Assembly (NCBI GenBank): GCA_030704615.1 | Contig: CM060731.1 | Location: forward strand, 80,104,001-80,168,000 | DNA: 64,000 nucleotides | From: Takakia lepidozioides | Taxonomy: Eukaryota; Plantae; Bryophyta | Direction: 5' to 3' | In this document: one piece after another, positions 9,015 through 46,037 of the stretch | Layout of the letters: every line of letters starts with the position of its first letter | How positions within the stretch are numbered: the stretch's first letter is position 1 | Made by a program: the position numbers and the translations under genes | Notes under the pieces: generated by a model | What the model was told of the DNA's origin: nothing | Seen by the model: the letters and a program-made list of their open reading frames with translations, nothing else | Databases searched by the model: none

Positions 9015-9201
9015 TGTCGTGCGCATACATATCGCTACACAACTACATCGATGTCCAAAACCACACAACACATGTGCACGCCACACACTAGTATATCACT
9101 AGTTCACCACTAGTCCAACCACTAGTCCAACCACTAGGCTACACTAGTCAGTCACTAGGCTGCCACTATACTGCCCATTATGGCAGTCACTAGTCCACAC
9201 A
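9015..9201 (-). repeat. Terminal repeat B (distal copy, B2) of copy 1
   Basis: 187-bp direct repeat of 9532-9718 with 3 substitutions seen; rich in CACTAG units. Confidence 0.92.
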
Positions 9202-9203
9202 AT

Positions 9204-9529
9204 AGATAAAGATGAAGAATACAAGCACAAGCTCATGCGAGCTCACAAAGCTGAAGCATAAACTCATGCATATATAACCTCATCACTCAAATACAAGTCA
9301 AGCCAAGTGCACCCCACGCCATGGGGAATCTACACTACGGCGCCATAGCTAGGCGCGGTGAGGCTCAACTCGAGAAAGATGAGCCTCCCGCGCTTGCCGT
9401 GAAGATAACCACTCCAGGGCCTAAATCTGCCTTGACCCCTGGATTGACACTTGGGCCAATCCCAAATGTCAATATGTAAAAGCTAGCTATTTCCTAGCTA
9501 GTTTCACACTAGTGGTAAATAACTTGACA
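9204..9529 (-). repeat. Terminal repeat A (internal copy, A2) of copy 1
   Basis: Homologous to 30818-31128 and 45116-45429; its first ~50 nt also match 20463-20513. Confidence 0.9.
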
Positions 9530-9531
9530 GC

Positions 9532-9718
9532 TGTCGTGCGCATACATATCGCTACACAACTACATCGCTGTCCAAAACCACACAACACATGTGCACGCCA
9601 CACACTAGTATATCACTAGTTCACCACTAGTCCAACCACTAGTCCAACCACTAGGCTACACTAGTCAGTCACTAGGCTGCCACTATGCTGCCCACTATGG
9701 CAGTCACTAGTCCACACA
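9532..9718 (-). repeat. Terminal repeat B (PPT-proximal copy, B1) of copy 1
   Basis: Follows the polypurine tract; joined to A2 by GACA-GC-TGTC. Confidence 0.92.
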
Positions 9719-9719
9719 A

Positions 9720-9730
9720 TCGCCCCCCTA
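9720..9730 (-). other. Polypurine tract
   Basis: TAGGGGGGCGA lies immediately before TTGTG of B1; the same sequence occurs at 44871-44881 in copy 2. Confidence 0.75.
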
Positions 9731-9785
9731 GCTGGTGCTTAGGTCCCTCTAAGTCCAGGTAGCCACAAGATGTGATAGTGACCAT

Positions 9786-12053
9786 TGTAGTGTGAAAAGA
9801 AAGGGCGTGAATCCCCTTCTGTGCAAGTCTAGTTGTGTTCCTCCCCAGGTTGATTGTAAGGAAGGAAAGGAGCTCTCCTCTCAGGTGATCCAACCAGCAT
9901 CACTCGGTGTGGGTTTCCCTCAGGTCCTTCATGATCAGAGTTCACACAATCCTCATCCACGCCGCAGCGGAAGAGAAGACATGGATGGGGAGTCTGTATT
10001 GTTTTCACCCGTGATTCTACTTTTACACGACATCCTCTCCCTGGTACACTGCACCAGCCATGTTACCATGCTGTCTTCAGTGATGCAACCAGCCCTACGT
10101 CAGTGATGACCACTGCCCTTGTGGGCAGCTCCCTTGGTCAGCAACAAGTGGAATCCCCTTTGTAATAAGATCACGATTTGGAAGGAGGCAACTCAGATCT
10201 GCCATGAGTTGCAGGCCCACCAGTTTGGCCCTTCATGGGTTCATGCTTTCTTTATCTTACCGCCCCAATCATCCATTCCTCTCCATCCCCTCTTGCTGGT
10301 CAGCTCTCTCCCTTATGTTCCTCACTCTTTCCACTGTAGCATGTCTATGATGCAATGTAATGCGCATTCAGCCAAGCATCCAGTGCACCCAGCATTGAAA
10401 TCAACCTTGGTCACACAAGATATAATCAACCCTTTTATCAGTCCCTCTCTTGCCAATGACAGATCCTTCACACTCCCCTTTTCCCAGGTGCAGCCATTTG
10501 CCCAAGACAGCTCTCAACCCTTCTTGTTGGTTTCCAAACAGTTCTATCTAACTCTCACTGGTTTCCTCTACCTACCAAGCTAGTTCCACATTGACTGCAA
10601 TGTGTCAACATCCCAGGCCAGATTGTTTGTACAAGCTCACGACGCTGAAACAAGGAACAAGAATACAACAGCAGCAACCATTCTGTCCCAGCAACGAATC
10701 AACCCTGTTTCCATTCATTTTTCCTACTATACAATGTAACAGCAGGTGCATCCATCTCCAGTCCATCCTGGTTTGAAGTCCAGTGTCTTCATTCCTTTTC
10801 CAAAGCTCTTTTTCTTCCTCACATGTCAGTGTCTCTTACTACATACAAGAGACCGTCCAAAACTTCACAAAGCGATTTCTAAGTCACCAAAAAGAGAGCC
10901 ACTCTTCAAACTTATCTGTCTTATACTCTTTGAGGCGGTGGGTCTGCCTGTCACGAAGGCACCTTGTCCTCTCCCTCGTCAGCCATTTCCGACGTCTCTT
11001 CTTATCGTGATTCCAGTCCTCATTAAGGCATGACGGCTCTGCTTCAGCTGCTGGCACATCCTTGTGTCTGCCAACCTCTACCCTATCCTTCTACATGTGC
11101 ATTCCTTCCCTATGAAGTGATCTGGTCCTACAGCCTTTAAGACAGAGAGCAGATACAAAACTTAATTATAGATAGCTTAAGCGCCATACACACCAGAAGG
11201 CGGCACCGCTTCCTCTTGCACAGAATGCCAAGCCAGATCCCTTAACGTCGCTCTTTAAGGCAAGCTGATTCTTTTACAAAGTGATCCGGTCCTAAAGCTC
11301 AGAAACAGACAGCAGCTACTAGATTTGATCACAGATAACCTGAGGCGCTATACACACCAGCCTATATTTCTCATCTCCCAACACCTGCTGAGCCGCTCCA
11401 TCTCCTCATTAATGTGCTCATCAAGACAATGGCGACAGCAGTGGTGCACCGCCCTTGTCACAAACCTGATCCCTCTGGTTTGATCATTGCTTACGAAGAA
11501 GGCGGCACCGATTCTTCTTGCACAGAAAGCCAAGCAGGAGCTCTTAACATTTCTCTTAAAAGCAAGCTGATACCCTTTGCGTAGGTGGAACTTTCTCAGA
11601 TATCATGTGCTGCCAGCACCACTGCAGCAGCTGCGAAAAGATACACGCACTCTTCTTGCACAGAAAGCCAAGCAGGAGCTCTTAACATTTCTCTTAAAAG
11701 TAAGCTGATACCCTTTGCGTAGGTGGAACTTTCTCAGATATCCTGTGCTGCCAACACCACTGCAGCAGCTGCGAAAAGATACACGCACTCTTCCCCTTCG
11801 AATTTCACATCCTGCTTCTAGGGTTCAACATCATGGATGAAAATCATTCATCCTAGGGATGAAAAAGGCGCATGTCACAACTTAGCCATATTTTGTTCCT
11901 GGCAGATCAATAGCATAGTCTTTCCATGGAATTACCTCAAGTTATGGACAATTCCTCCCCTTCATCAGCACGAAGGGCACTCCCTTTGTAGTAGTGCCGA
12001 AACCTAAGGCCAAACAAAAACTTGAAATTTTTACCCCCTGCACTCACACTACA
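9786..12053. mobile_element. 2.27-kb nested insertion (probable solo LTR or non-autonomous element) in the 3' UTR of copy 1
   Basis: 10-bp inverted ends TGTAGTGTGA...TCACACTACA; TSD CCAT at 9782-9785 and 12054-12057; absent from the homologous site in copy 2 (~44815-44822). Confidence 0.85.
11513..11793. repeat. ~138-bp tandem duplication inside the nested insertion
   Basis: Unit tcttcttgcacagaaagccaagcagg... starts at 11513 and 11651; a diverged partial copy lies near 11200-11280. Confidence 0.8.
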
Positions 12054-12254
12054 CCATAGCTAGTCTCACTAAGTCCTCCACCACTATCCCTACTACACTC
12101 AAACTCAATAGATCAAGAGGCCGGGTGCAAGAGTTGCCCCATCGTTAGTCGCCGTCTTACAACCTGTGAACTTGAGCTTGGGATCTCATGTATTGACTCC
12201 TATGAGCTTGGCCTCCCATGTCTTGTTAGCTGCCTCCAGTCATGTCCACTGCCA

Positions 12255-13540
12255 CTATCCCAAGCAGTGTGGACACAACCAATCTCCGTCAGGAACCTTC
12301 TCAAGAGGTGGTGTCAAGCATCCCATATGCCAACCCCTTGAGCATCGATTACACACCAGCATGGTGGCTGCCCCTTTGGCAAACCCACAGAGCATGCACC
12401 TCAAACCTGCAGGTACCACTGCCAAGTTTGGGTCAACTCTGCCATCGACATTGGGAAGGTGACATGGCGCACAATTACGCACATGGTCTTTCCAAGTCAT
12501 GCCATCCCGACCCTCCAAGATCAGGACTCCTGAGGGCAACACCTCTTGAACCCTCAGAATAACACGCCCTGCAGTAACATCCAGAGTCGTAGGAGCAGTC
12601 TGCTGCAAATAGACATAGTCACCAGGGCTAAACCTCCGAACCCCAGGACGATATCCTCCACCACGTATAGTGGCATACCTCAACGTATCACGGTGTTGTG
12701 CAATGGCAATGTTCTCAAAAGCCATGGGCATGACTTTCTTGAACAACTTTGCACGCTGATCACATACACGTACCCACACGTCCGGATCGTCAAGGTTAAG
12801 GACTTGAGCAGTGTCCCTACGAATGGCTGCAGGCAAATCCGGCTCTCGGCCAAAGAGAAGGAAATATGGTGAGAAGGAGACAAGTGATGCTTGTTTGCTG
12901 AACCTGTAGCCCATGGCTAACCAAGGAACCTGAAGATCCCAATCTCCTAGGTGTTCCTTCTGCAAGCCATACTTGCGCAAACCCCTCTTCACCGTCTGAA
13001 CAACTCTCTCTGCCAAGCCATCGGCCTCAGGATGATCCTGAGAAGTGGTGCGGTGGTCTATCAAGGCTTTATCACACAAAGCCTGAAACTCCCCCAAGAA
13101 CTCTCTCCCTTGGTCCGTGAGTACCTCAGCTGGAGCACCAAATCGGCTAAGCACACGATCAAGAATGCATACGCAGCCCCCTCACTAGCCTTGTCAGGCA
13201 ATGGAACCAACTCAATCCACTTGGAGAAGTGCTCCACCATCACCAACACATATCTGTGGTGGCGCATAGTCAGTGGCAACGGTCCTGCGAAGTCAAGACT
13301 CCACCTGTAGCCCAATCCCATGATTGGTAAAGGATGCAACTGTGGTGTAGGGGCGTTGAATGAAGCACGCACCCTGTCACACACCATGCACCTAGCCAAC
13401 TGTTGCACCTCTGTATGCATACCACGCCACCAATACTGCCCCTGCAGTAAACTGTGAGTGCGTCGCACTCCAAAATGCCCAACTCCTCATGGGCATGCCG
13501 CACTAACCGTGCACGCTGTGTGGGGTGAGGCACAATCCTC
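12255..13540 (-). CDS. Integrase (HHCC Zn-binding, DDE core) with C-terminal PHD finger; frameshifted
   Basis: Motifs HAHEELGH...CMVC, WSLDFAGPLP, VLTDQGREF and DGLAERVVQTVK. PHD finger CMLC...CNRCSRGWHMGCLTPPL...W.CPHC at ~12260-12395. Confidence 0.92.
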
Positions 13541-15300
13541 ACCGACCATCCTCCCATACTCGAAGTAGGTGTATCCCCTCCCACTTGAACCTCTTGGCTC
13601 GTTGCAGGATCCGATCCCTCTCCCTGGCAGTCACAGTGGCTGTCGTGTCTCCCGTGCGGAGGTAGTCCAACACAGCCGAATCCTCATGTATATCTTTGGC
13701 ACCACCTGGCTCATCACTAGCCTCAGGGTCCTCAGACACTCCGTCTACAGTCATCCCTGTTGTAGGTCCAACCTGACCTCCCGATGCCAAGATACACAAA
13801 AATGCAGATGCGTGCCATCCCGGCACCATCTCCTCGTCCGTCTCACCATGCCACCGAGCTCCAGTGTCATCCTGCTGGCTCATGCATGGATTGCGACTCA
13901 ATCCATCCGCATCCCGATTGACCAAACCCGGTCGATGCACAACCTGAAAGTCATACTCCTGGAGTATGAATGCCCACCGTGCAAGCTTCCCCGTAAGCTT
14001 GTCTGACTCCATCAACCACTTGAGTGGCTGGTGATCCGTGACAAGGGTGAAAAGATTGCGGTATAGATAGCACCTGAAGTGTGCCACGGCCCACACTGCA
14101 GCTAAGCACTCTCCCTCATATGAGCTGTACTTAGCCTCTGCAGCGTTGTTCGAGCGGCTAGCATAAGCCACTACGAACTCTCTTCCCTCATCATCCACCT
14201 GTGTGAGCACCGCTCCAAGCCCCAGCATGCTCCAATCCGTATGCAGCTGAAAGGGACGCCCCCTGATAGGTCGTCTCAGGATAGGCGCCGAGGTCAACCT
14301 CGCCTTGAGCTCTTGAAAAGCTCGTTCCTGCTCATCTTCCCACTGCCACTCCTGGTCCACCTTGGTCAGCTTGGTTAGAGCCTTTGCAATGGTACTAAAT
14401 CCCTTGACAAACCGTCTATAATAGTTTGCCAACCCCATGAAAGCTCGAACTCGGCTCACATCCGTGGGGCGTGGAATTTGTGCAATGGCCTCTACCTTAG
14501 TCTGCTGTACCCCCAATCCTCCAGGATATATCATGTGACCCAGATACTCAATCTGGTTGTGGAAAAACTTGCACTTCCCCGGATGCAACTTCAATCCGTG
14601 CGCTCTCAAGCGCTCCAATACCACCTGAAGGTGTCTCTCATGCTCCTCCATCGTAACACTAAAGATGATGATGTCATCTATGTAGCACCGAGCAAAGTCC
14701 ACCCCTGCTAGAATCCTATCCATGACTCTCTGAAACTCTGCAGGAGCATTCTTAAGCCCAAATGGTAAGAACCGCCACTGATATAGGCAATCCTTGCCGT
14801 GCTCATTGATCCCCCAGAATGTCGTCTTCTGCTTGTCCGCCTCCTTGATTGGCAACTGGTGATATCCGGATCGTAAATCCAAAGTGCTAAAGACCTTAGC
14901 ATGCCCGATGGCATCAAAGATCTCCTCTGGTGTTGGCATGGCATACTTATCGGACTTGGTCTGACGATTTACAGGCCGGTAATCACCGCACATACGTCTC
15001 TCCGTCCAATTGCCATAGACATCCTTCTTGGCTGGCATCACTGTGGCTGAAGCATACTCTCCACCAGAGAGCTCCACCAAACCTGCCTCCCAGAGATCTT
15101 GAGTCCTCATCTGAATCAAAGACCTCTCCATGTCACTGTATCTATAGGGTCTCCGAAAGATTGGCGTGTCAGTGGCCAACTCAATACGGATCTCTTGACC
15201 CTTCAGTGCTCCCAAGTCCTTCAAACTGAAGGCAAAGCAATTCCTGTAAGCCCTCAGGAACCGCCGTATACGTCGTCTCTCTCCTCCGGTGACAATGGGT
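13539..15300 (-). CDS. Gypsy reverse transcriptase and RNase H
   Basis: Motifs RMCGDYRPVN, LDLRSGYHQ, LPFGLKNAP and YIDDII; RNase H motifs LHTDWS...ECLAAVWA...TDHQPL. Confidence 0.95.
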
Positions 15301-15370
15301 CCAATGTCAGGCTCCCAACTGCAACCTTAAGTCCAGTGGGCTTAGAGGTAGAGGACGCGTCCAGTGGTTG

Positions 15371-18300
15371 CTATGTTGCAACCTCTTGAGCAGTACTCCC
15401 TGCCTGCTCAGTCAATGACAAGGCCTCATCCTGCCCCATCATCTCATCCTTGAGGACCTCCTCAACCCGAGAAGAATCCCCAACCTCATCCATCACAGCC
15501 GCCTTGGCTGCCAACTCCCTCTGAACCTCGAGCACCTCCCACGTGTGCCATGGATGCATGCACCCCGTGGTCCTCACATGCTCGCCCCCACTCACTGCCT
15601 GTACCGTCTCGGTAGGCAGAGAGACCATCGAGGGAAGTGTACTCCGCACTCTGCGTTGCTCAGCCAGAGCCAAGCTGATAATCCAGGTCAAGCAATTGAG
15701 ATCCATTGCTTGCCCCAACACTTGACGACGTGATGCCTCAGAAAGAGACGACACCGCCGTGGTACCAGTGGTAAAACCCATTGCCCGCTCACGCTCGTCA
15801 GCATTAGGCTCCACTAACTGCTGCAACTGAGCATCCCACAGGAGGCCAGGTCCACTATCCCGGAAAGCATGCGATCCTGGGAAGCTGAGCAGTGTAGGTA
15901 ATGCTGCTCGTGGTTGACCCACCTTGTTGACCACTGCCAAAGGCGAACGGTCATCGTGTCTCACACGCTGAGACTGCCTCCCTGTGTCCAGAATGCTATC
16001 CACTGTGAGATGTGCTGGCCGCTGCACCCCATCAAATGCACGCTTGAGCAGTGCGGGTGGCATCAAGTTAGTCCACCATAGCCGTGGACGATGAGCCCGT
16101 GACCCCACTGTAGCTGCATCTAGCAACACTGCTGACCCAAGCCACGACCGGACTTGATGCACACTGGCCATCACCCTGGCCCGAGAATCGCCCATCAGTG
16201 GCACATTCTCCAAGATGTATGCTGGAGATACAGCTTGATGAAGCTGCAAGTGGCGCAAAACCCGCACCATCTCCCAAAACAGACCCGACCTCGAGTCTCG
16301 CAATCCATTGCCATGCCCGGCTGATGAATGCCCTTGGCAGGGCCAACCTGCCACTACCAGATCAATGGAGCCAACCCGCTCCAAATCCTGCGCCCCCAGC
16401 AACGAAATGTCTGCTGGCAAGGCCTGCTGATATCCACGAATTGCAGACACCGACAACAACTCAGGGTACCGCTGCACCAACTGAGCAACATGGCGAAGTG
16501 AAACGCGTCGTGCAGTCTCATCCCTCTCCACATACAGGTAACGCCGAACTCGTACACCTGCCTGTAACACAGCAGCCAATCCGGTGCTGATCCCGCCAAA
16601 CAAGTCCAGAAGACAAATGCCTTCATCCGGATACTGCCACACAATAGGTGTGGTGTCCAATGGAGACAACTGAGGTGGTCCTGGTGCAATCCCCGCACTC
16701 TCCTCCTCTCCTGACGGTACAAAAGCCTCCACCCAGGCTTGTTGCACCCGTCGATCAGCATCCCGCTGCAAATCCTTGCTCGTGCCCCACAATGGAGTCT
16801 GAGCAACCATGGTAGGCAACTCCGCCATACCATACATGTCATCCTGCTCTCCCGGAGGTGGCACATCCTCTGAATGAGCGTTGCCCTCAAGCAACTCTCT
16901 AGGCCAACTCACTGCCGCTGTGAATGCTGCTAGTGTCGGCATCTTGCCTCGCTGGGCAACCGCAACTCCTCCTATGAACGTCACAGGGAGCTGCACACGC
17001 CGGCCCTCCCCTGACTGCCATGCAGGCCTATAGGAAGCTGACTCCTCCCAAAAATCCAGGGTGAAGCCCATGGGGTACAACACTGCCCCACCAACCAGGA
17101 CATCGTATGAGACCGCGTCTGTCACAATGGCCTTGGCTCGCATCACTGAGCCATCTGTAGGGTGATCCGGCCGTAGTCTGATAGCCAACTCACGCCGTGT
17201 CATGCCCCGAGCCTGCTCCGATCCTCCCAGAGACGTCTGTATCTGGAAAGGACAAGGCTCCATATCCGCCTCCGTGAGGCCCAAGCCTGCAATAGCAGCT
17301 CTGCCCAGCATCAATGGCTGAGCTCCCGAGTCCAACAAGACCCGCAGTGGCCGGTACCTCTTGCCTGCCGGTCCACTCAAACAGAAAATGTCATCCTGGT
17401 TGTCTAACATGACAACTCCAGGTGTCACCATGGCGCGCTCAATGGCTGGCCTAGCTGGCAGCTCCATCAACCTGGCAGCTGCAGCTTGCCATGGCGCCGC
17501 CGTGGCAGTCTTGACCCTCAAATCCGAGGATCCCTCCGGCACTACACCTCCCACTATCTCCGCAGAAGATGAAGTAACCTCCCCACTCTCACAGAGTGTA
17601 GCTGCCAGCCTGAACACCTCAGCTGGTCTTACCCCCGGCGTCGCAATCATGGTAGCCGAGAACAATGGAGCCTGGCACACAGATGTGGCCGCTCCTAGCA
17701 GCACACTAGCTGCCGTAGCCTTGGCAACACTAGGTAGTGGTGCTACCCATGTAGCTCTCCCCAATGGCATAGTAACCTCCGCCTCGGTAACAGTCGGGCG
17801 AGAACTAGGTGCCATGGATGGCGTCGACACTGTCTCCGCCAATGTGAATGACTGAGGAAGCCTAGCCTGACGGCTTGCCTCCCCACGCTGTGGATCCAAC
17901 TCCACCTCTGCACCTCGTGGCTCAGGAACTCGTGCTGCTCCTCGAGTCACGGCTGCAGCAGACTCCACCTGCACTAGTGGTAGTGCTGCTCCACACATGA
18001 ATCCCATGCCTCCCATATCTCCTCCCTCAGGAGCAGGAGGTGGACCATCCGGCCTTAGAGCCGGTACCACCTGAGCTGTAGCCATGGCAGCGAGCCTCTG
18101 CTCTAGCTGCTGAAGCCGGTTGGCCATGCCTTGGTCAACACCCTGACCTCCGCGTCCTTGGCCATGTTGAGCTTGCCCTTGGCCTGCACCTCGTGGCTGG
18201 CCACCTCGTCCTCTTTGGGCTGCTCCACCTCGCCCCCGGCCACCATTGTTCCCTTGGAACTGGCCTGGGCGCAACTCAGGATGCAAACCATAACACTGGG

Positions 18301-19036
18301 CCTCTCCATGCCCGTGCTTGCCACAATGCCCACACTGCAATTGTGCAGGCTGTGCATGTGCCGGCCCTTTGCCTCCCTCTGGGCAATCCTTCTTGACATG
18401 GGGTCCTCCATATGTCCAGCACACCACATCCGCCCGTTGTTGGCCAGTAAATGAAGGGAGAGACCCCTGCATCTGAGGTCCTCTCTGCCCTTCCCTGAGT
18501 TTCACCTGAGCCCCCTTGTTGCCTTGAGCACGTTGAGGTAGTGGTTGGCTAGGAGCACCACTACCCCGTGGTGTCTCCTTAGCAAATCCCACCATGACCA
18601 CTCGTTCCTCCACCATGTTGAGCTCTATCCGCTCTGCCAGCAAAAACACATTTGCTAAGGTGGGTTGGGCCGCTTGTAGGAGAGTTGCATCCCGTACCCT
18701 TCTCCTCAGCTCCTTGTCCAATATCCCATACCAGAATTGGACTGCTTGAGCTTCCGTAACCCCTTGGGTTACCTTTATCAAGCGCCTCATGCGAGTGAAA
18801 ACCTCCCTCAAGCTCTTGGTCGGCTTCCGTTGGAACTCTTGCAAGCTCCGCAACTTCTCTGTCCTCACCCCTTGGTAGTTCCCTCTCAACTCTTCGAAGA
18901 ACTCCACAACAGGGTTGAAGGCAGGCACGGGTACTAGTGCTGGTGCGGTAGTGGCTTGGGTGGACGTCGTAGCTACTGTACCACCAGTCCCACTGCTACT
19001 TGCTGAAGTTGCCGGTGCAGCGGCAGGTGTAGCCAC
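15371..19036 (-). CDS. Gag C-terminal part, zinc knuckles, aspartic protease and C5-cytosine DNA methyltransferase (1221-aa open frame)
   Basis: CCHC knuckle CGHCGKHGHGEAQC; protease LLDSGA at ~17320-17340. MTase at ~15690-16620 has motifs I LDLFGG, IV GWPCQG, VI ENV, VIII AHRPRLWWTN, IX ERERAMGF and X RQVLGQA. Confidence 0.92.
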   Translation of the reverse strand: MATPAAAPATSASSSGTGGTVATTSTQATTAPALVPVPAFNPVVEFFEELRGNYQGVRTEKLRSLQEFQRKPTKSLREVFTRMRRLIKVTQGVTEAQAVQFWYGILDKELRRRVRDATLLQAAQPTLANVFLLAERIELNMVEERVVMVGFAKETPRGSGAPSQPLPQRAQGNKGAQVKLREGQRGPQMQGSLPSFTGQQRADVVCWTYGGPHVKKDCPEGGKGPAHAQPAQLQCGHCGKHGHGEAQCYGLHPELRPGQFQGNNGGRGRGGAAQRGRGGQPRGAGQGQAQHGQGRGGQGVDQGMANRLQQLEQRLAAMATAQVVPALRPDGPPPAPEGGDMGGMGFMCGAALPLVQVESAAAVTRGAARVPEPRGAEVELDPQRGEASRQARLPQSFTLAETVSTPSMAPSSRPTVTEAEVTMPLGRATWVAPLPSVAKATAASVLLGAATSVCQAPLFSATMIATPGVRPAEVFRLAATLCESGEVTSSSAEIVGGVVPEGSSDLRVKTATAAPWQAAAARLMELPARPAIERAMVTPGVVMLDNQDDIFCLSGPAGKRYRPLRVLLDSGAQPLMLGRAAIAGLGLTEADMEPCPFQIQTSLGGSEQARGMTRRELAIRLRPDHPTDGSVMRAKAIVTDAVSYDVLVGGAVLYPMGFTLDFWEESASYRPAWQSGEGRRVQLPVTFIGGVAVAQRGKMPTLAAFTAAVSWPRELLEGNAHSEDVPPPGEQDDMYGMAELPTMVAQTPLWGTSKDLQRDADRRVQQAWVEAFVPSGEEESAGIAPGPPQLSPLDTTPIVWQYPDEGICLLDLFGGISTGLAAVLQAGVRVRRYLYVERDETARRVSLRHVAQLVQRYPELLSVSAIRGYQQALPADISLLGAQDLERVGSIDLVVAGWPCQGHSSAGHGNGLRDSRSGLFWEMVRVLRHLQLHQAVSPAYILENVPLMGDSRARVMASVHQVRSWLGSAVLLDAATVGSRAHRPRLWWTNLMPPALLKRAFDGVQRPAHLTVDSILDTGRQSQRVRHDDRSPLAVVNKVGQPRAALPTLLSFPGSHAFRDSGPGLLWDAQLQQLVEPNADERERAMGFTTGTTAVSSLSEASRRQVLGQAMDLNCLTWIISLALAEQRRVRSTLPSMVSLPTETVQAVSGGEHVRTTGCMHPWHTWEVLEVQRELAAKAAVMDEVGDSSRVEEVLKDEMMGQDEALSLTEQAGSTAQEVAT

Positions 19037-19039
19037 TGC

Positions 19040-19560
19040 CCTCGTGGCTCTAGTGCCCCTAGTGATGGAGACATAGTCGGGTGACTAGTACATCCTCCAC
19101 TCCTCAATCTCAACCTCATGCCATCATCCATAGGCGGCCCCTCAAGGTGCTGAAACAGCCCCTTCCATGCCATGAAAGGCGTAAATAGTTGTGGATTGCG
19201 CATTTGCTGCAAATCACACCAACTATCAAACTCTTGGATAAAATCATCCAACTCGATGGTGTCCACCGCCCCAGAGTACCTTCGTGGCCCCTTGGTAGCT
19301 CCATACATCTCCTCCATTGTGTCCCACAACAATGGCAAAGAAACAACTTGCACCGCCGGTATGAGTCCTCCTGATTCACAATCCGAATCAGAACCTTCCG
19401 TAGAAGACACAGGAGGTGAAGGTGGCCTAAACCTCACACCTCGTCTCGTGTACCCACTAGTATCGCTAGTGCTCGAACCGGCACTGTCCCCAGCAACTAG
19501 TGGCACCTCCATGTTGACACTCAACCGGTCATGAACATGTCCATAACCCCCTCTCCACAA
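19040..19560 (-). pseudogene. Gag N-terminal region (frameshift and stop before the main ORF)
   Basis: PRRYSGAVDTIELDDFIQEFDSWCD...LFQHLEG resembles a retrotransposon capsid N-terminus and directly precedes the 1221-aa ORF. Confidence 0.7.
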
Positions 19561-20339
19561 GGTAACCGGGTAGAGAACCTGTTGCGGCTTATGGTTTGGA
19601 ATACTAAGTTCCTAACATAGCCTACACCTGTACCGGCATCCACCGCAAACACTCCTATGGTTGGCTGGTCATCACCTCCAACCTCACCACAGGAGAAACA
19701 ATGATGGTCTGGCTGGTCATCACCCCAGCCTCACCATCGACAGCATGCTCTAGGACTGGCCGGTGATCAAATCCGGACCAATCACCTATAAAAACAAGCG
19801 CCCACACAAAACTAGCATGGCGCACAGTCAAGCATGCAGGTATGGAGGGGATCCAAACACAAGAAATCATAACGACACTCCTGCAAGGACACCCCAGCCC
19901 AAACCCGGACTGACTCTTGCCTCCACCTACGGAAAGGTCTTGGCCTAATGAGAGGGTGGAAACTACAAGGAAGAGAAGCTAAAGCAATGCCTAACCCCAG
20001 CATGCCCTCATCCCAACACTCTTCCTCTCCTCTCTTCCCTCACTTGCATGACCATGGGAATATCATGAAGATACTCCTCAAACCGCCCTCAGCCAAGACA
20101 CAAACGCCAGCATTGAGGCATACCATGGAAATCTGAAGGCAAGACTTGCCATGGGGAAAAGCAAGACGAGTGGTTGTAGAGTGGACTGGCTTATATGGGA
20201 ACTCACTGGCCGTGTGCTAACACACTACTGGTACGCAATCCATTTGAAGACCCACGGGTTCATAAGAAATGACAAACACGAAAAGTACATATCCAGTTCT
20301 ATACTTGCGGCACGAGACATTCCTGCTGAGAATGTTACT

Positions 20340-20460
20340 CTTCCTTTGCATGAGGGACATGGCGGGCTGCTATACACCACATTGTTATTTTGGGCTTCCA
20401 ATACTGCTCGATATAGTCCACGAGCTTCAAAATTCGGCCTTCAAGACCACATGCCTGTCC
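20340..20460 (-). pseudogene. Possible MULE-type transposase fragment replacing most of the 5' repeat A
   Basis: LVDYIEQYWKPKITMWCIAARHVPHA resembles the Y...W......W....R..PHA segment of plant MULE transposases; the match is short. Confidence 0.35.
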
Positions 20461-20462
20461 TT

Positions 20463-20513
20463 AAGCTAGCTATTTCCTAGCTAGTTTCACACTAGTGGTA
20501 AAATAACTTGACA
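20463..20513 (-). repeat. 5' terminal repeat A (A1) of copy 1; only the first ~50 bp retained
   Basis: Matches ~9480-9529 with a single 1-nt indel. Confidence 0.85.
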
Positions 20514-26879: not shown

Positions 26880-27600
26880 TTTCCACAGGGAATCACCCCT
26901 TCCCGCATCATTGCTCATAGGTCTCCAAAGCCTCCATCCGCGCCCTTGCTGTGCATATCCTGCACTCATCGCACTCCACGACACCACATCTCGTTCAGCC
27001 ATACTGTCGAACACTTCCTTTGCATCCTCGATGCACCCACATTTGGCATACATGCAGTCCACCAGGGCAGTGTTCAGAATGACATTGGGTACAATTCCAG
27101 ATTTGACGATGTCACTATGGTCCTCTTTGCCCTTTTCAAGAGCTCCCAGGCTTGCACATGCATTACAAACAAATGTGATGTGGTTGGGCTTCACCCCTTC
27201 GCGCAGCAGTTGCTCATAGGTCTCCAAAGCATTCCTACAACACCTATGTTAAATCCTGCCAACATTATATTCAACGTGATCAAAGTTCGTTGAGGCATTC
27301 CGTTGAACACTCGGTGTGCATTCACGATGCTCCTGCACTTAACATACATGTTCACAAGGGTGTTGAGGAGAAAAACACTTGGCGTGAATCCACTTTGGAT
27401 AATGTGAGTGTGCACCTGCTTTCCAGCTTCCAGACCCTTCAATTTGATGCACTTAAGCAAGAGACAGACATACATATCTGAATCTGCTGAAATGCTCCTT
27501 GGTTTAAAGGTTGTAGAGCCTCTTTCAGTCTGCCTGCCTCACAAAGCATCTTCACATGCCCAGAAGAGCCAGAAGAGGCATTATGGCCTCCCTCTCTTGA
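26880..27600 (-). pseudogene. PLS-class PPR gene 5' portion, frameshifted
   Basis: LCEAGRLKEAL; YVCLLLKCIKLKGLEAGKQVHTHIIQSGF..VFLLNTLVNMYVKC; followed by further PLS motifs. Confidence 0.85.
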
Positions 27601-27640
27601 TCCTCTTTTAGAAGCTGTGGTCATGGTTGAGGTGCCTGAT

Positions 27641-29243
27641 TTAAATCAGGGCTGCCAGGCCTGCAATGCACACAAACATGATGTGGCCGGGCTGAACCCC
27701 TTCCCCCATCATTTGCTCATAGGTCTCCAAAGCCTCCATCCCACGTCCCTGCTGTGCATACCCTGCAAGCATCGCACTCCACGACACCACATCTTGTTCA
27801 GCCATAGTGTTGAACACTCCCTTTGCATCCTCGATGCACCCACATTTTGCATACATGTCCACTAGGGTATTGTTCAAAATGACATTTGGTACAATTCCAG
27901 CTCTGAAGGTGTCACCATGGACCTCCTTCCCCTTTTCCAGAGCTGCCAGGGCAGTGTTTCGAATGACATTAGGTACAATTTCAGCTTTGATGATATCCCC
28001 ATGCACCTCTTTGCCCTTCTCCAGGGCTGCCAGGCCTGCAATGCATACAAACATGATGTGGTCAGGCTGAACCCCTTCCCCCATCATTTGCTCATAGGTC
28101 TCCAAAGCCTCCATCCCACGTCCCTGTTGTGTATACCCTGCAAGCATCGCACTCCACGACACCACATCTCGTTCAGCCATGGTGTTAAACACTCCCTTTG
28201 CATCCTCGATGCACCCACATTTTGCATACATGTCCACTAGGGTATTGTTCAAAATGACATTTGGTACAATTCCAGCTCTGAAGATGTCACCATGGACCTC
28301 CTTCCCCTTTTCCAGAGCTGCCAGGGCAGTGTTTCGAATGACATTAGGTACAATTCCAGCTTTGATGATATCCCCATGCACCTCTTTGCCCTTCTCCAGG
28401 GCTGCCAGGCCTGCAATGCATACAAACATGATGTGGCCAGGCTGAACCCCTTCCCCCATCATTTGCTCATAGGTCTCCAAAGCCTCCATCCCACGTCCCT
28501 GTTGTGTATACCCTTCAAGCATCGCACTCCACGACACCACATCTCGTTCAGCCATGGTGTTAAACACTCCCTTTGCATCCTCGATGCACCCACATTTTGC
28601 ATACATGTCCACTAGGGTATTGTTCAAAATGACATTTGGTACAATTCTAGCTCTGAAGATGTCACCACGGACCTCCTTCCCCTTTTCTAGAGCTGTCAAG
28701 GCAGTGTTTAGAATGACATTTGGTACAATTCCAGCTCTGAAGGTGTCACCATGGACCTCCTTCCCCTTTTCCAGAGCTGCCAGGGCAGTGTTTCGAATGA
28801 CATTAGGTACAATTTCAGCTTTGATGATATCCCTTCTCCAGGGCTGCCAGGCCTGCAATGCATACAAACATGATGTGGCCGGGCTGAACCACTTCCCCCA
28901 TCATTTCCTCATAGGTCTCCAAAGCCTCCATCCCACGTCCCTGTTGTGTATACCCTGCAAGCATCGCACTCCACGACACCACATCTCGTTCAGCCATAGT
29001 GTTGAACACTCCCTTTGCATCCTCGATGCACCCACATTTTGCATACATGTCCACTAGGGTATTGTTCAAAATGACATTTGGTACAATTCCAGCTCTAAAG
29101 GTGTCACCATGGACCTCCTTCCCCTTTTCCAGAGCTGCCAGGGCAGTGTTTCGAATGACATTAGGTACAATATCCCCATGCACCTCTTTGCCCTTCTCAA
29201 GGGCTGCCAGGCTTGCACAAGCATTGCAATGCACACAAACATG
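27641..29243 (-). pseudogene. Tandem array of near-identical PLS-PPR modules (~375-bp unit); 408-aa ORF at 27641-28867
   Basis: Unit marker gggctgccaggcctgcaatgc occurs at ~27649, 28024, 28399 and 28841. Confidence 0.88.
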
Positions 29244-30801
29244 ATGTGAGAGGGCAAAACAGGCTGAAATAGGTCAAAGAAGAAGGTGCCCTCACCACAT
29301 TGTCCTTGAGCTTGTGTCATGACTTGACCGACCATCAACCCAAAAGGACCTCTTGTGTGTGCTGCTTGTGTCTATAGTCAGGTAATGTCGGATTGGTCTG
29401 TGAGATCGAACTACCACGGTGCAGCTGAGTAGGCAGAGAGTGAAACACGGCCTGCTAAGACCAAGCTAACTCTCCCAAGAACGGCGAGCTCGCAAGAATG
29501 TTGCGAGCTTCTCCTCGTCTCATCTCCTCCTTCTCTCCTCCTTCCTGCATCATTTGCTCAACACCTCCATCCCACGCCCCTGCATATCCTGCGATCATCG
29601 CGTTCCATCCCTCGGCTACATGGTGTGGCGCATGAGACAAAAAAAAACGCCAAGTCCCAGCCCTCCTCTGTGTTCACGATTACCCTAATGGGCAACCTTA
29701 TTAGCAACTTTTTGACTTTTTAACCTTTTGCACTTTGATTCATTCTAGGTCGGAGGCTAAAATCCTGCTACCAGACTTGTCTAGAAAACCAAAACACCAC
29801 GTAGACAAACATTTGATAATGGTAATAAAATATATTATCATTGGGCTGGTTTGAACACTTGTTAGTAAATTTAGGTTAGGATTTTTTCGAAATATTCTGG
29901 TTTTTCTTTGATGTGTGAGATGACAAAGTCCAAGCATGTCACAGAAACAAGGAGTTCAACGTAAGGATGATGCAAGTGATTTGTGGCAAAAAGTGTAAAT
30001 CATGCCTATGCCTATTTATCCTAGTTGTGTCATAGGTTGCAACGGAACGGGGCCACCTTTGAATGCGATCCTCATGCTCATTTCACCAAGGGCATTATAG
30101 ACTTCATAATGTAGAGATTGAAAATGGGGTGTAGCAGGGCGTGATTCTTCACTTGCTAGTAGCCCATCGTGCAGATTTCTAAACATGAACATGAAGTTCA
30201 TAATCATTTGGGCATCATTCTCAAACTCCCCATACACCACAATGTGGAAATTCTATGGTCTCATTTCACACATGTGTGTAACATGCCATGTAAACTAAGC
30301 CAACTCCTGCCATACTCATGGCTGTTTTCACACCGTTCTTGCCTCGGGTATGGATCACATGTGAGACACCCCACAGTTAGGGCATATTTTGACCCACACC
30401 TTGGCTCACTCTACAGACTTGTGATAAAAACCGTGGAATGTGCCAGGTGTGAGATGGCAGAGCCGTGGAAAAAGCCGGTTTCTCTTCTAGTGGATAAGAG
30501 TAATGGTTTAGGGTACTAAGTGTCCGGCTTAAGCCTATGGAAGGGTTAAGGGAAGGGTAAAACGAAGGGTAAGGATTTGGAGGTGATGGTAAAGGTATAA
30601 ATGGACAGCTATGCAACGCCGCTCTTCAACATAGGCTATCCGCCTCTCTATCCATTGCAAACCTGCAACCTGTTCGCCTTTGCACTCTATCCGCTTTGGA
30701 TAGGCTCATGCACGGATCCCTGCACTCTAGGCTGAACCGCTTCTCATGATCTGAAAACACAAGTGCTACAAGTAACTTGAACATGGCACTCACAGACTCG
30801 A

Positions 30802-30817
30802 GCTCATCTTTCTCGAG
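30802..30817 (-). other. Primer-binding site complementary to the element's own LTR sequence
   Basis: CTCGAGAAAGATGAGC follows the TTATCA end of repeat A directly and is the reverse complement of the sequence at 30967-30982. Confidence 0.75.
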
Positions 30818-31128
30818 TGATAAAGAAGAATGATACAAGCACACAAGTTCTCTCACACTCACACACTCGCACATGAAAACATCACTCATATTAAGTCGAG
30901 CCAAATGCACCCCACGCCATGGGGAATCCACACTATGGCGCCATAGCTAGACGCGGTGAGGCTCAACTCGAGAAAGATGAGCCCACCGCGATCTGCCGTG
31001 AAGATAACAACGCCAGGTGCCCAAACATATATTGGCCCTTGGATTGATATTTGGGTCAATCCCAAATGTCAATATCAAAACTAACTATTTCCTAGCTAGT
31101 TTCACACTAGTGATAAAATAACTTGACA
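30818..31128 (-). repeat. Complete 5' repeat A (A1) of the Gypsy-MTase family; probably the displaced 5' end of copy 2
   Basis: TGTCAAG...TTATCA, about 95% identical by eye to 45116-45429; no B repeat upstream; 5' flank is CATC. Confidence 0.88.
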
Positions 31129-32089
31129 GATGAAACTCTATTTTAACTAATTCTGGACTTTTGTTTGGTCTAGAAATAATACAAGATATACGAACAATTA
31201 TAATCTATAATAGAAATAAAGAGATATATCTGTAATTATTTGACTATTTGTGCACTATATAACAACAAATTATGTAATCATCCACACATTCTACGCAAAA
31301 AATACAAGTATGTATTGTGGTCTTAGATGAACATCCACTGCCAAGTTGACGTTCATTAAAAGGAATGGGGGGATGCAATGAATCAAACAATGATGAGAGC
31401 TCTGATATCCAAAATGACATACACAAACAAACATGGAATAATGGCAGAACCAAATATTAAACAATGATGGCATGTGATGAACAGGACAACATGGAAAAAT
31501 GAGTCTGTCGGGATCTGATTGATGATATGAAACATTCATATTTTATTTGAGATTATATCATTCAAGGCGATGGACCAACAGAAAAATGAACGTCAACTGT
31601 CCATTTGTTCATGGACTTAATGCCATACAAACCATAGATTCTGAAGCCATAGAACCGTTACGGCTTATTCTAACTCATTAATAATACTAAGCCTCCTACC
31701 AAACGGCTCGCAGTCAAGGCATGTGTCCGAAGACGCCTCCGGTTACCACAGCCACTTGCAACGGTCTCCGCTCCAGAGGACACGGAGATACTTTCAGGAA
31801 GGTGAAACCGGCTGACATTGTCATCTGAAATGTTGTTGCCAACTCTACTTGATGCCCTTGAAGCCTCCCGGCACACCCGCCATTCTTCCCAATCACGCAA
31901 CTCTTGTTCCTCTTTTAGAATTCGTTCTTTGAATGTAACTGGGGACAAGCGATGGAAATGACAAATGTTAGGCCCAAAGTGGAAGTTTTGCATATGGATA
32001 TGTTGAGGTAAGAGTGCAAATGCAGCTGCAAAAGAATTGGAAAATCAAATTATGAACAAACAACAGAACAGTGGGATCCACGTGCCTAC

Positions 32090-36602: not shown

Positions 36603-36821
36603 ACGGTAGTCATGGTTTTCCTGACTTTGACCATGACTTCCCTATATTTTTGGACCAAATGGGGCTTCACGGAGTCGTTGAAATAACTGCGTGGCTCCGT
36701 AATCCTCTGGGTGACTACGTTGGTAAACTTCGTCATGACTACATCATGTCAATTGACACACGTCGCTGTGGGGGGGGGTTGGGGATTTAATTTATTGTTA
36801 TTATAATTACTATAATAATAA

Positions 36822-41172: not shown

Positions 41173-44100
41173 ACTACCTACACTGCTCAGCTTCCCAAGA
41201 TCGCATGTTTTCCGGGATAGTGGACCTGGCCTCCTGTGGGATGCTCAGTTGCAGCAGTTAGTGAAGCCTTATGCCGACGAGCGAGAGCGGGCTATGGGTT
41301 TTTCCACTGGGACCACGGCGATGCCTTCTCTTTTTGAGGCATCGCGTCGTCAGGTATTGGGGCAAGCGATGGATCTCAATTGATTGACCTGGATTATCAA
41401 CTTTGCTATGGCTGAGCAACGTAGAGTGCGGAGTGCACTTCCCTTGACGGTCTCTCTTCCTACCGAGACGGTACAGGCAGTGAGTGGTGGCGAGCCGGTG
41501 AGGACCACGGGATGTAGACATCCATGGCACACGTGGGAGGTACTCGAGGTTCAGAGGGAGTTGGCAGCCAAGGCGGCTATGATGGATGAGGTTGGGGATT
41601 GAGGAGGTCCTCAAGGATGAGATGATGGGGTAGGGTGAGGCCTTGTCATTGACTGAGCAGGCAGGGAGTACTGCTCATGAGGTTGCGGCATAGCAACCAC
41701 GGGACGCGTCTCCTACGTCTAAGTCTGCTGGACTTAAGGTTGCAGTTACGGAGGACAATTGGGAGCCTGACATTGGACCCATTGTCACTAGAGGAGAGAG
41801 ACGACGTATACGGCGGTTCTTGAGGGCTTACAGGAATTGTTTTCCCTTCAGTTTGAAGGACTTGGGAGCACTAAAGGGTCAGGAAATTCGTATTGAGTTG
41901 GCCACGAACACGCAAATCTTTTGGAGACCCTATAGATACAGTGACATGGAGAGGTTTTTGATTCAGATGAGGACTCGAGATACACATTCTCCACTGGATT
42001 CCTCCAAATTTTCATCATTTTTCAGAGTTGTATTTTTTGTAGTTGTTTTTGTATTGTCAATGATTTCCATGGATGCGCAGCCCAGGGCTGGTTTGGTGGA
42101 GCTCTCTGGTGGAGAGTATGCTTCAGCCACAGTGATGCCAGCCAAGAAGGATGTCTATGGCAATTGGACGGAGAGACATATGTGCGGTGACTATGTAAAT
42201 CGTCAAACCAAGTCCGATAAGTATGTCATGCCCACACCTGAGGAGATCTTTGGTGCCATTGGGCATGCCAAGGTCTTTAGCACTGACTTGCGGTCCGGAT
42301 ATCACCAGTTGCCGATCAAGGAGGCGGACAGGCAGAAGACGGCATTCTGGGGGATCAATGAGCACGGGAAGGATTGCCTATATCAGTGGTGGTTCTTACC
42401 ATTCGGCTTAAGAACGCTCCTGCAGAGTTCCAGAGAGTCATGGACATGATTCTAGCAAGGGTGGACTTTGCTCAGTGCTACATAGATGACATCATCATCT
42501 TTAGTGCTATGGTGGAGGAGCACAAGAGACACCTTCAGGTGATGTTTGAGCGCTTGAGTGCGCACAGATTGAAATTACATCCGGGGAAGTGCAAGTTCTT
42601 CCAAAACCAGATTGAGTATCTGCGCCACATGATATATCCTGGAGGATTGGGGGTGCAGCAGACTAAGGTAGAGGCCATCGCACAGATTCCACGCCCCATG
42701 GATGTGAGCTGAGTTCGAGCTTTCATGGGGTTGGCAAACTACTACAACGGTTTGTCAAGGGATTTAGTATTATTGCAAAGGCTCTAACCAAGGTAGACCA
42801 GGAGTGGCAGTGGGAAGATGAGCAAGAGCGAGCTTTTCAGGAGCTCAAGGCGAGGTTGACCTCGGTGCCCATTTTGAGACGACCTATCAGGGGGCATCCC
42901 TTTCAGCTGCATACAGATTGGAGCATGCAAGCTTATGGGGAAGCTTGCATGGTGGGCACTTATACTCCAGGAGTATGACTTTCAGGTTGTGCATCGACCG
43001 AGTTTGGTCAATAGGGATGCGGATGGATTGAGTCGCAATCCATGCACGAGCCAGCAGGATGACACAGGAGCTCGGTGGCATGGTGAGACAGACGAGGAGA
43101 TGGTGCCGGAATGGCATGCATCTGTCTTTTTGTGTATCTTGGCATCGGGAGGTCAGGTTGGACCTACAACAGGGATGACTGTAGACAGAGTGTCTGAGGA
43201 CCCTGAGGCTAGTGATGAGCCAGGTGGTGCCAGAGATATACATGAGGATTCGGTTGTGTTGGACTACCTCCGCACTGGAGACACGGCAGCTCGTGTGACT
43301 GTCAAGGAGAGGGATCGGATCCTACAACGAGCCAAGAGGTTCAAGTGAGAGGGGATACACCTACTTTGAGTGTGGGAGGATGGTCGGGTGAGGATCGTGT
43401 CTCACCCAACACAGCGTGTACGATTAGTGCGGCATGCCCATGAGGAGTTGGGGCATTTTGGAGTGCAACGCACTCATAGTCTACTGCAGGGGCAGTATTG
43501 GTGGCGTGGTATGCACACAGAGGTACAACAGCTTGTGGCTAGGTGCATGGTATGTGACAGGGTGTGTGCTTCATTCAACGCCCCTACACCATAGTTGCAT
43601 CCTTTACCCATCATGGGATTGGGCTACAGGTGGAGTCTTGACTTCGCAGGGCCGTTGCCACTGACGATGCGCCACCACAGATATGTGTTGGTGATGGTGG
43701 AGCACTTCTTCAAGAGGATTGAGTTGGTTCCATTGTCTGACAAGGCTAGTGAGGGGGCTGCGTATGCATTCCTGGATCGTGTGCTTAGCCAATTCGGTGC
43801 TCCAGCTGAGGTACTCATGGACCAAGGGAGAGAGTTCTTGGGGGAGTTTCAGGCTTTGTGTGATAAAGCCTTGATAGACCACCGTACCACTTCTCGGGAT
43901 TATCCTGAGGCCGATGGCTTGGCAGAGAGAGTGGTGCAGACAGTGTAGAGGGGTTTGCGCAAGTATGGCTTGCAAAAAGGACACCTAGGAGATTGGGATC
44001 TTCAAGTACCTTGGTTAGCCATGGGCTACAGGTTTAGCAAGCAAGCATCACTTGCCTCCTTCTCACCATATTTCATTCTCTTTGGCCGAGAGCCAGACGT

Positions 44101-45659
44101 CTATTCGCAGGTAGGCTGCAGTAGTCCTCAACCTTGATGATCCGGATGTATGGACACAAGCATGTGCCCAGCGGGCAGAGTTGTTAAAGAGGGTCATGCC
44201 TATGGCTTTTGAGAACCTTGCTATTGCCCAACACCGAGACACATTGAGGTATGTCACTATATGTGGAGGGGGATATCGGCTGGGTGTTTGGCGTTTCCAC
44301 CCTGGGGACTATGTGTATCTGCAGCAGACAGTGCCTACGACCTTGGATGTCACAGCATGACGTGTGATTCTAAGGGTCAGGGAGGTGTTGCCTTCAGGAC
44401 TGTTGATTCTGGAGGGTCGAGATGGCATGGTATAGAGGATAGATCCCAACCTTGCAGTGGTACCTGCAGGGTTGCATTGCATGCTATGTGGGCAGCTCGT
44501 GGTGCCGCCACTATGCTGACCATGTGTGATCGATGCTCAAGAGGTTGGCACATGGGATGCTTGACACCACCTCTTGAGAGGGTTCCTGATGGAGATTGGT
44601 TATGTCCACACTGCTTGGGATAGTGGTAGTGGATATACTAGTGGTAGCTAACAAGACATGGGAGGCCAAGCTCATAGGAGTCAATACCCGAGATCTCAAG
44701 CTCAAGTTCACAGGTTACAAGACGGCGACTAACGATGGGGCAACTCTTGTACCCGGCCTCTTGATCTAACGAGTTTGAGTGTGGTAGGGATAGTGGTGGA
44801 GGACTTAGTGAGGCTATGGCCACTATCACATCTTGTGGCTACCTCGACTTAGAGGGACCTAAGCGCCAGCTAGGGGGGCGATTGTGATGGACTAGTGGCA
44901 GCCTAGTAATGGACTAGTGGCTACACTAGTGGTGGCTAGTGGCAGCCTAGTGGTTGGACTAGTGGCTACACTAGTGGTTGCACTAGTGGTGATTAGTGGT
45001 TGTCTAGTGGTAGCCTAGTAGTGCACTAGTGGTGGACTAGTGTTTGGTGTGCACATATGTTGTGTGGTTGTGGACAGGGATGTAATTGTGTAGCGATATG
45101 TATGCGTACGACAGCTGTCAAGTTATTTTACCACTAGTGTGAAACTTGCTAGGAAATAGTTAGTTTTGATATATTGACATTTGGGATTGATCCAAGTATC
45201 AATCCAGGGGCCAATATATGTTTGGGCACCTGGCGTTGTTATCTTCATGGCAGATCGCGGTGGGCTCATCTTTCTCGAGTTGAGCCTCACCGCGTCTAGC
45301 TATGGCGCCGTAGTGTGGATTCCCCATGGCGTGGGGTGTACTTGGCTCGACTTAATATGAGTGATGTTTTCATGTGCAAGTGTGAGAGTGTGAGAGAGCT
45401 TGTGTGCTTGTATCATTCTTTCTTTATCATTGTGATGGACTAGTGGCAGCCTAGTGATGGACTAGTGGCTGCACTAGTGGTGGCTAGTGACAGCCTCGTG
45501 GTGGACTAGTAGCTGCACTAGTGGTGACTAGTGGTTGTGTAGTGGCAGCCTAGTGGTCCACTAGTGGTGGACTAGTGATAGACTAGTGTTTGGTGTGCAC
45601 ATTTGTTGGGTGGTTGTGGACAACGATGTAGTTGTGTAGCGATATGTATGCGCACGACA
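41173..45659 (+). mobile_element. Gypsy-MTase copy 2 (5'-truncated within the MTase; decayed RT-RH-IN-PHD; PPT-B1-gc-A2-B2 end)
   Basis: Collinear with copy 1. B1 44883-45113, A2 45116-45429, B2 45431-45659. Right flank is CATC. Confidence 0.92.
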
Positions 45660-46037
45660 CATCAGTCTGTCTTGCTCATTTCATGCATTATGTGTGTATT
45701 GTTCATTTCATTTACCGACTCATTTGTGTCTCTACTGTTAGTCTGACCTATTGTAATGTACATAAAGAAGATTATACAAATCTCCTTCTACCACCCAATT
45801 TTCTTTTCATTTATATGGTAGGCTAAATTCAAGCTCAAACACTATTATGGCATGATGATCGCTTTGGGTTCCCTACTCATGTGTGTGATATTTTTTCTGC
45901 CAATGAACAAAATATGGACATGGTGTCAATACTGTAAAAGAGAGGAAGATTTTTGTCGAAGCAAACGTAACTTATGCTATCACTCCATCACCAGGAGCTA
46001 CCGTTTGGAAGGTGGACATTTTCATCTTTTAACCTGT

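Follow-up and report, generated by a model that had tools for sequence, protein, structure and literature searches.

In the portions of the published work covered here, the self-priming element Tf1 is described with an 11-nt primer that RNase H separates from base 12 (PMC7175516), with a “pretzel” of three duplexes around the primer-binding site (PBS) (bioRxiv 10.1101/2022.12.06.519325), and with a primer that is copied into the PBS for about half of the cDNAs (PMC11042837). For plants, the text of Neumann 2019 reports predicted self-priming in 12% of its elements, in the Tcn1 and TAR lineages (PMC6317226). Because the search in that study needed paired LTRs flanked by duplications (PMC6317226), it would probably miss elements with a split-repeat layout. 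DIRS-like repeats combined with Gypsy-like domains are given for KnitGypsy-Dnmt3 in the legend of Fig. 4c of de Mendoza 2018 (PMC5890265), and the main text and three supplementary text files of that report contain no analysis of the PBS, of priming or of target duplications. The replication of this lineage is not worked out in the literature that we searched, which included PMC4600332 and PMC2864245 and had subscription journals and Repbase outside its scope; it yielded no report of self-priming in the lineage, and the text of bioRxiv 10.64898/2026.05.21.726589, as far as covered, does not mention a primer or a PBS.

Here we analyzed a 64,000-nt stretch of the genome of Takakia lepidozioides (the window; contig CM060731.1), which contains a 17-nt inverted repeat. 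Judged by its sequence, the outer arm of this repeat is the PBS of a KnitGypsy-Dnmt3-type Gypsy element that has decayed and is present in many copies.

Organization of the element

The window is plant-like, with PPR-type repeats, and holds three pieces of one Gypsy family, which we call E1, E2 and E3. E1 (9015..20513, minus strand) is the most complete copy. Its reading frames are broken, and ACCC stands on either flank as a target duplication of 4 bp. Of its 5′ repeat A only 51-52 bp remain (20463-20513, minus) and the PBS is lost, while the coding order on the minus strand is gag, protease region, C5 DNA methylase, RT-RNase H, integrase and PHD. The 3′ repeats follow in the order PPT, B (about 9532-9718), GC, A (9204-9529), T and B (9015-9203), all on the minus strand. 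Between the PHD end and the polypurine tract (PPT) lies a 2.3-kb insertion (9786-12060) that has internal short repeats and no second copy in the window.

Domains identified in E1 are PF00145 (C5 DNA methylase), RVT_1, RT_RNaseH, PHD PF00628 and rve, the latter as a weak match below the cut-off; the closest relative of solved structure is the Ty3 RT. E1 thus combines a C5 DNA methylase in pol with a Gypsy RT, RNase H and integrase, as expected of a Gypsy-DNMT3 element, with the methylase assigned at the level of the C5 family. The A-coding-B-A-B layout is present in E1 and in nine related loci that have both A and both B copies, two of these loci being one insertion.

E2 carries the inverted repeat and consists of a 5′ A copy, the PBS and about 190 nt of leader, all on the minus strand. 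The leader (30610..30801, minus) is the start of the 5′ untranslated region of the family according to a family-level table of contig depth, and because this depth declines at positions lower than about 30610-30630, E2 is taken to be cut off at its leader. E3 (41174..45659, plus) is a 3′ half with the methylase end, RT, integrase, PHD and PPT (44872-44881) in broken frames, followed on the plus strand by B (44883-45113), GC, A (45116-45429, with the inner arm at 45264-45279), T and B (45431-45659). The A copies of E2 and E3 are 95% identical to each other and both 87% identical to that of E1, and the CATC on the 5′ flank of E2 (31129..31132, minus) equals, in element sense, the CATC after the end of E3 at 45659, a possible shared target duplication. 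Because of these equal flanks and the 95% identity, E2 and E3 may represent opposite ends of a single element; it may have been broken by an inversion with deletion (E2, 30818-31132, minus; E3, 41174-45663, plus).

Several other features of the window were recorded. An integrase-PHD fragment at 55564-56413 (minus), 96% identical to E1, is fused to the first bases of B, with the PHD end and the purine tract skipped. The sequence upstream of the E1 gag (19597-20085) recurs with 80-83% identity at 46037-46738, just past E3, either as the leader of another copy or as a separate repeat. Fragments of PPR-like repeats, many of which contain short internal duplications, are clustered on both strands (7787-8857, 26893-29249, 38104-39129 and 48890-52539). 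Further frames encode a LINE-like RT fragment (57893-58900), a DUF2921 fragment (49447-50070), a NIF phosphatase-like sequence (35973-36641) and DUF4216 (22731-23957), the last of which we take to be of CACTA type.

The inverted repeat and its two arms

Sequence comparison bore out the perfect inverted repeat of an earlier note on this DNA: the 17-nt arms at 30802-30818 and 30966-30982 are 100% identical and 147 nt apart. Read in element sense on the minus strand, the 5′ copy of repeat A (30818..31128) has 311 bp, from TG at 31128 to CA at 30818, with a predicted promoter part (31128-30979) and a predicted R-U5 of 161 nt (30978-30818). The sequence CTCGAGAAAGATGAGC (30817-30802, minus) adjoins the terminal CA of repeat A directly, and the A of this CA supplies the 17th pair of the inverted repeat. 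We therefore refer to 30802..30817 (minus) as the PBS; it has a 12-nt core at 30806-30817, and its base 13 (30805) is dimorphic among copies.

The 16-mer has four sites in the window, all with 0 mismatches (9369-9384, 30802-30817, 30967-30982 and 45264-45279), against a chance expectation of 0.34 matches at up to 3 mismatches. The longest complement within A is 16 nt at the PBS, compared to a maximum of 12 over 125,482 window positions outside the A copies. The inverted repeat is far above chance. The earlier note had also held that the inner arm keeps its sequence in all three A copies while its surroundings differ. The first half of this statement is correct, but the surroundings differ only in the upstream part and at the U5 end. 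Because the ~80 nt downstream of the arm are nearly as conserved as the arm, its conservation alone is weak evidence, and we rejected a function deduced from it alone.

Contigs of the host show that A followed by the window-type PBS is the norm of this high-copy family, and that either varied flanks or the end of B lie upstream of A. Variation was measured on contigs of public runs, where X1, X2 and X3 are one sample and summed contig depth does not equal copy number. The complement does not reach 16-17 nt in all host copies, since base 13 varies while its partner at 30979 is unchanged: the variant 30805 C>G takes 55% (X1), 37% (X2), 26% (X3) and 46% (X5) of the summed contig depth. No other difference within the two arms reaches 2% in the DNA runs, and a G>C change at the partner position is absent from them. 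In run X8, single contigs vary at 30975, 30976 and 30979 in the inner arm, which counts against a self-priming reading.

Related elements in other genomes

At E ≤1e-20, 494 of 2519 candidates are integrase-PHD relatives. The best 120 of these 494 include proteins from Calypogeia, Marchantia, Sphagnum, Klebsormidium and chlorophytes; Marchantia polymorpha has relatives of the lineage among these listed matches, and the K. nitens protein P0087 is an integrase-PHD relative with 52% identity. With an alignment of 31 integrase sequences as query, 525 related metagenome loci were matched, and the best 80 were taken for analysis. In these, 23 5′ A copies together with the sequence behind them were identified by self-comparison and by searching with 3′ A copies, of which three (L022, L068 and L027) were dropped as repeat captures of one insertion; one weak locus from viral contigs was left out. 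When 21 loci were screened de novo for inverted repeats of 12 nt, L053, L055 and L057 were obtained again and L009 was newly found, whereas the other matches of this screen lay away from element ends and were taken as chance. The final set comprises 22 copies in six LTR families, namely the window family, F1, F2, F3, F4 (locus L033) and L009.

F4 has the B type of F3, and a polypurine tract precedes B in all families. Exact 4-bp target duplications flank five of seven related elements, with three of four bases matching in one and none in another. In L009, PPT-B-GT-A-PBS-leader stand in one run (8540-9040), and a one-LTR circle would look alike; the contig is probably an assembly collapsed across A.

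Covariation of the PBS with the LTR

The six families have six different PBS sequences, with the cores CTCGAGAAAGAT (window), CTCAAAGAACT (F1), TCTAGAAAAACT (F2), AATCACCAAAAGT (F3), AAAATCCAAAAAATT (F4) and CTTGACAAGAAT (L009), and each is complementary to its own LTR at about position 148-177 of repeat A. Watson-Crick pairs form at 12/12 positions in the window family, 11/11 in F1, 12/12 in F2, 13/13 in F3, 14/15 in F4 (with the 3′ A copy) and 12/12 in L009. When one well-kept copy is chosen per row, 10 of the first 11 positions show at least two pair types. Within F1, the variant L065 keeps 11/11 pairs through two compensatory changes when it is paired with its own 3′ A copy. The covariation of the arms across subfamilies, which had been proposed as a check, is therefore found.

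We applied the criterion of Neumann 2019, as given in the text covered, of an exact complement of at least 10 nt starting 0-5 nt after the LTR (PMC6317226). The window PBS has 16 nt by this measure. A complement was found in the own A for 10 of the 22 copies and in any A of the family for 18 of 22, but in only 5 of 838 comparisons with other families. Four of these five involve the window PBS and one 10-mer near the U5 end of F1. At the F1 U5 end, ATCTTTCTCG (about 1997-2006 in L011) lies ~20 nt before the A end and equals the first 10 nt of the predicted primer of the window family, by chance or as a relic. A best 12-mer match of at least 11 occurs in 12/21 copies for the own A and in 2/302 cross-family comparisons. 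When the test is slid along the end of A, the maximum is at offset 0 (12/21), with 0/21 at offsets of -6 or less (upstream) and of +12 or more (downstream). As had been pointed out for the window, the PBS does not start with TGG; judged by this triplet, a complement to a tRNA 3′ end is absent from the first 8 nt of the PBS in all 22 copies and all six families. ARAGORN detected no tRNA gene in the window, nor in 59 of the 81 loci scanned.

For twelve of the 22 copies the own A contains no exact 10-nt match, for four of them (L043, L076, L072 and L026) no family member does either, and two F1 copies are without part of the inner site. We read these failures as the decay of dead copies. As the primer may be copied into the PBS, the compensation between the two could arise by copying and not by selection; by either route it implies self-priming. 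The tRNA-independent self-priming put forward in the earlier note is supported by the six families, by the 18 within-family against 5 cross-family matches and by the missing TGG, and we consider it likely, from these comparisons of sequence, that the elements prime from the first ~12 bases of their own RNA and not from a tRNA. This reading would fix the RNA start and the cDNA end for a lineage that is widespread among seed-free plants and algae.

Predicted RNA start and primer length

In F1, F2, F3 and L009 the first paired base is an A preceded by a pyrimidine, and a TATA box lies 29-32 nt upstream of it. Measured on 3′ A copies, the distance from TATA to primer is 30-31 nt in F1 (7/8), 31-32 nt in F2 (16/16) and 29 nt in F3 (3/5), and it is 29 nt in L009. 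A canonical TATA at -30 is missing from the window family and from F4; where the relatives have it, the window family has the non-canonical TTATCTT (31001..31007, minus), 28-29 nt before A30978 and kept in all three A copies. From the TATA spacing in the relatives and the uncompensated base 13 (30805), the start is predicted at 30978, which gives the R-U5 its length of 161 nt. The self-primer is thus predicted as 12 nt long (30967..30978, minus), and it probably starts at A30978, within about 4 nt, and not at G30982. The start near 30982 and the R-U5 of about 165 nt that had been proposed earlier are less likely.

Could the primer be longer, with 16 nt from a start at G30982, or could starts be mixed, with longer primers sometimes overwriting the bases after the PBS? 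The complement does continue upstream of the predicted start, by 4 nt in the window copy, where it reaches 30982, by 3 nt in L009 and by up to about 9 nt in F1, and the primer copy often carried by Tf1 cDNA provides a route for overwriting (PMC11042837, in the portion covered). Some F1 copies have a complement of 16-21 nt, a length for which a fixed start does not account. However, base 13 is mismatched in 26-55% of the depth while its partner is invariant, the distance from TATA singles out the A in four families, the extension in F2 and F3 is just 0-1 nt, and the upstream GCTC is accounted for separately by a local hairpin (see below). We regard a longer primer as possible but rather improbable, and keep the 12-nt primer.

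At the base just past the PBS core, the window family, F1 (5 C and 2 A of 8) and F2 (5 C and 2 A of 8 in the aligned column) have C or the complement of base -1, and F3 has T. A mutation hot spot at this base was considered and is not established: its dimorphism is one of 7 by transversion in F1 and one of 15 in F2, it follows a subfamily within F1, and F3 has T.

Folding of the 5′ end

In RNA folds from the predicted start, the minimum-energy structure contains a primer:PBS helix of at least 9 pairs in 11 of 14 cases, and the three folds that miss it are all of decayed 5′ copies. The window RNA fold with the long-range helix has a z of -4.98, although 3 of the 12 primer:PBS pairs of this copy go to a competing register. 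In several families the predicted helix runs a few pairs further into U5. For a duplex on the downstream side of the PBS, the window offers a 7-bp candidate (-8.7 kcal/mol), and F2 and F3 offer nothing consistent. The PBS of the window can also fold with its own downstream bases (minus 30817-30797) into a 6-bp stem of -6.9 kcal/mol; a similar stem has up to 10 bp in F1 and is absent from F3 and F4.

A hairpin is predicted across the predicted start (30955..30987, minus), in which the upstream GTGGGCTCA pairs with TGAGCCTCAC after the primer. Folded on the identical 40-mer of the 45116-45429 copy, it has -17.8 kcal/mol and a z of -3.7. Folding of 15 copies plus L009, with z from mononucleotide shuffles, predicts a start-straddling hairpin in five of the six families, with differing sequences; F2 is without a notable one. 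The energies are -17.8 and -18.0 kcal/mol in the window family, -11.3 to -14.6 in F1, -7.3 to -10.8 in F3, -7.4 in F4 (z only -1.7) and -17.6 in L009 (12 bp, perfect). Because the upstream sequence must be transcribed, the hairpin is possible only in the 3′ A copy or in read-through RNA, and in the 3′ A copy it may hide the primer sequence. Co-folding with the upstream sequence weakens PBS binding in the window family (from -10.3 to -4.2 and -2.5 kcal/mol) and in F3 (from -17.5 to -8.8), changes it little in F2 and has the reverse effect in F1 (from -7.2 to -12.3). Masking of the primer is therefore a hypothesis with mixed support.

The pairing might alternatively be a by-product, either structural (a 5′-leader stem for packaging or translation control) or of copying (a fold-back scar), with priming achieved otherwise, for example as in DIRS elements. 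The A...B-A-B layout is DIRS-like (PMC5890265, in the text covered), and both sites are near-palindromic, with local hairpins in several families. Yet the helix begins exactly at the A end and its other arm lies ~30 nt past TATA, which is the geometry that a primer needs. Moreover, a normal polypurine tract precedes B in every family, and the weak rve match stands together with 4-bp duplications, a tyrosine recombinase being undetected in the frames scanned. We judge this explanation unlikely. Priming by a host tRNA, a tRNA half or another small RNA, with an incidental match inside the LTR, is very improbable, because all six PBS sequences, though unrelated, match the LTR of their own family at the corresponding place and because Neumann 2019, in the portion covered, saw half-tRNA priming, which is known in plants and does not need TGG, only in Ty1/copia lineages (PMC6317226).

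Proposed replication and integration route

Under self-priming, transcription would start inside A, at the predicted A30978 (±4 nt), and the RNA 5′ end would loop over the 161-nt R-U5 so that its first 12 nt pair with the PBS. The RNase H of the element, a domain present in E1 (RT_RNaseH), would then cut after the last paired base, as in Tf1, and free a 3′-OH directed into U5; this cleavage is a prediction from the domain content. Minus-strand DNA would copy R-U5 and jump to the 3′ A copy. With the PBS directly at the end of A and the PPT directly before B, normal reverse transcription would yield a cDNA with B-GC-A (B-nn-A) at both ends. Inserted copies, with their 4-bp duplications, have the form A...B-A-B, starting with A and ending with B. 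The primer site would therefore mark the end of the cDNA, which differs from the integrated end.

To arrive at the inserted form, the cDNA ends might be joined and the circle then opened at CA|GC|TG. Of 36 loci matched by a tolerant pattern, 33 retain CA-nn-TG at the B|A junction, as such or with a transition. The A|B junction is ragged, and A often ends in something other than CA beside the PBS in F2 and F3. This pattern, with B|A kept and A|B ragged, fits a cDNA whose ends are joined and which is then opened at the inner site, and the difference between a cDNA end at A and an inserted end at B makes this route testable.

A wider joint reading, which we put forward tentatively and consider less likely than not, combines self-priming invented or kept outside the chromoviruses, a hairpin lock on the 3′ primer copy, a PBS rewritten in each cycle from the capped primer, and an end-joined circle opened at the inner CA-nn-TG. 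Reverse transcriptases can place a C opposite the cap. If the joint reading were true, the C often found just past the PBS would be a copy of the cap, and since the hairpin needs the upstream promoter sequence, only a true capped 5′ end would reach the PBS.

Comparison with known systems

A close counterpart in layout is KnitGypsy-Dnmt3 of Klebsormidium nitens (de Mendoza 2018, PMC5890265), which, in the text covered, shares with our elements the Gypsy domains, the DNMT in pol and the DIRS-like A-coding-B-A-B repeats. Membership in DIRS/Ngaro was rejected, since the frames scanned have no match to a recombinase family and exact 4-bp duplications are present in five of seven relatives and in E1.

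The TAR lineage of Ty1/copia (Houba, Osr-1) is, in the portion covered, another case of predicted plant self-priming outside Tf1/sushi, but it belongs to the copia superfamily and has ordinary LTRs, unlike the elements studied here (PMC6317226). Because TAR is predicted to self-prime outside Tf1/sushi, self-priming has arisen more than once, and the present lineage is a probable further case of tRNA-free priming beyond Tf1/sushi and TAR.

The earlier note had drawn the parallel to Tf1/sushi. It stands for the priming geometry and is not supported for group membership. As in Tf1/Tf2 (Schizosaccharomyces pombe) and in the Tf1/sushi group including the plant Tcn1, in the portions of the reports covered, the PBS lies right after the 5′ LTR and its complement of 11-15 nt lies at the predicted RNA start inside the LTR (PMC7175516, bioRxiv 10.1101/2022.12.06.519325, PMC6317226). 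A complement to tRNA is likewise missing (here judged by TGG), and in several families the helix extends into U5, as in that group. On the other hand, our lineage has a PHD finger in place of the chromodomain, a C5 methylase in pol, split A...B-A-B repeats and 4-bp duplications. A chromodomain (Chromo) was not found in the window element, which has PHD PF00628 instead, while the same scan detects Chromo in an unrelated element of L078. That element (11795-15326, minus) and those in L067 and L017 are chromodomain-bearing Gypsy elements beside family members, with RTs 33-34% identical to those of the lineage. In a quick, unrooted tree of 40 RTs without named references, 36 family rows stand apart (SH-aLRT 97) from the two rows of chromovirus type and from two further outsiders. 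Tf1/sushi membership was rejected on the chromodomain test, and the RT identity to a chromodomain-bearing neighbour is 34%; the elements nevertheless probably work like Tf1. In contrast to Tf1, the third duplex of the “pretzel” is inconsistent across families, and a hairpin spans the predicted start in five of the six. The surprise is limited, as the chemistry of priming is already known from Tf1; what is likely new is its setting, in a chromodomain-less split-repeat lineage of mosses and liverworts.
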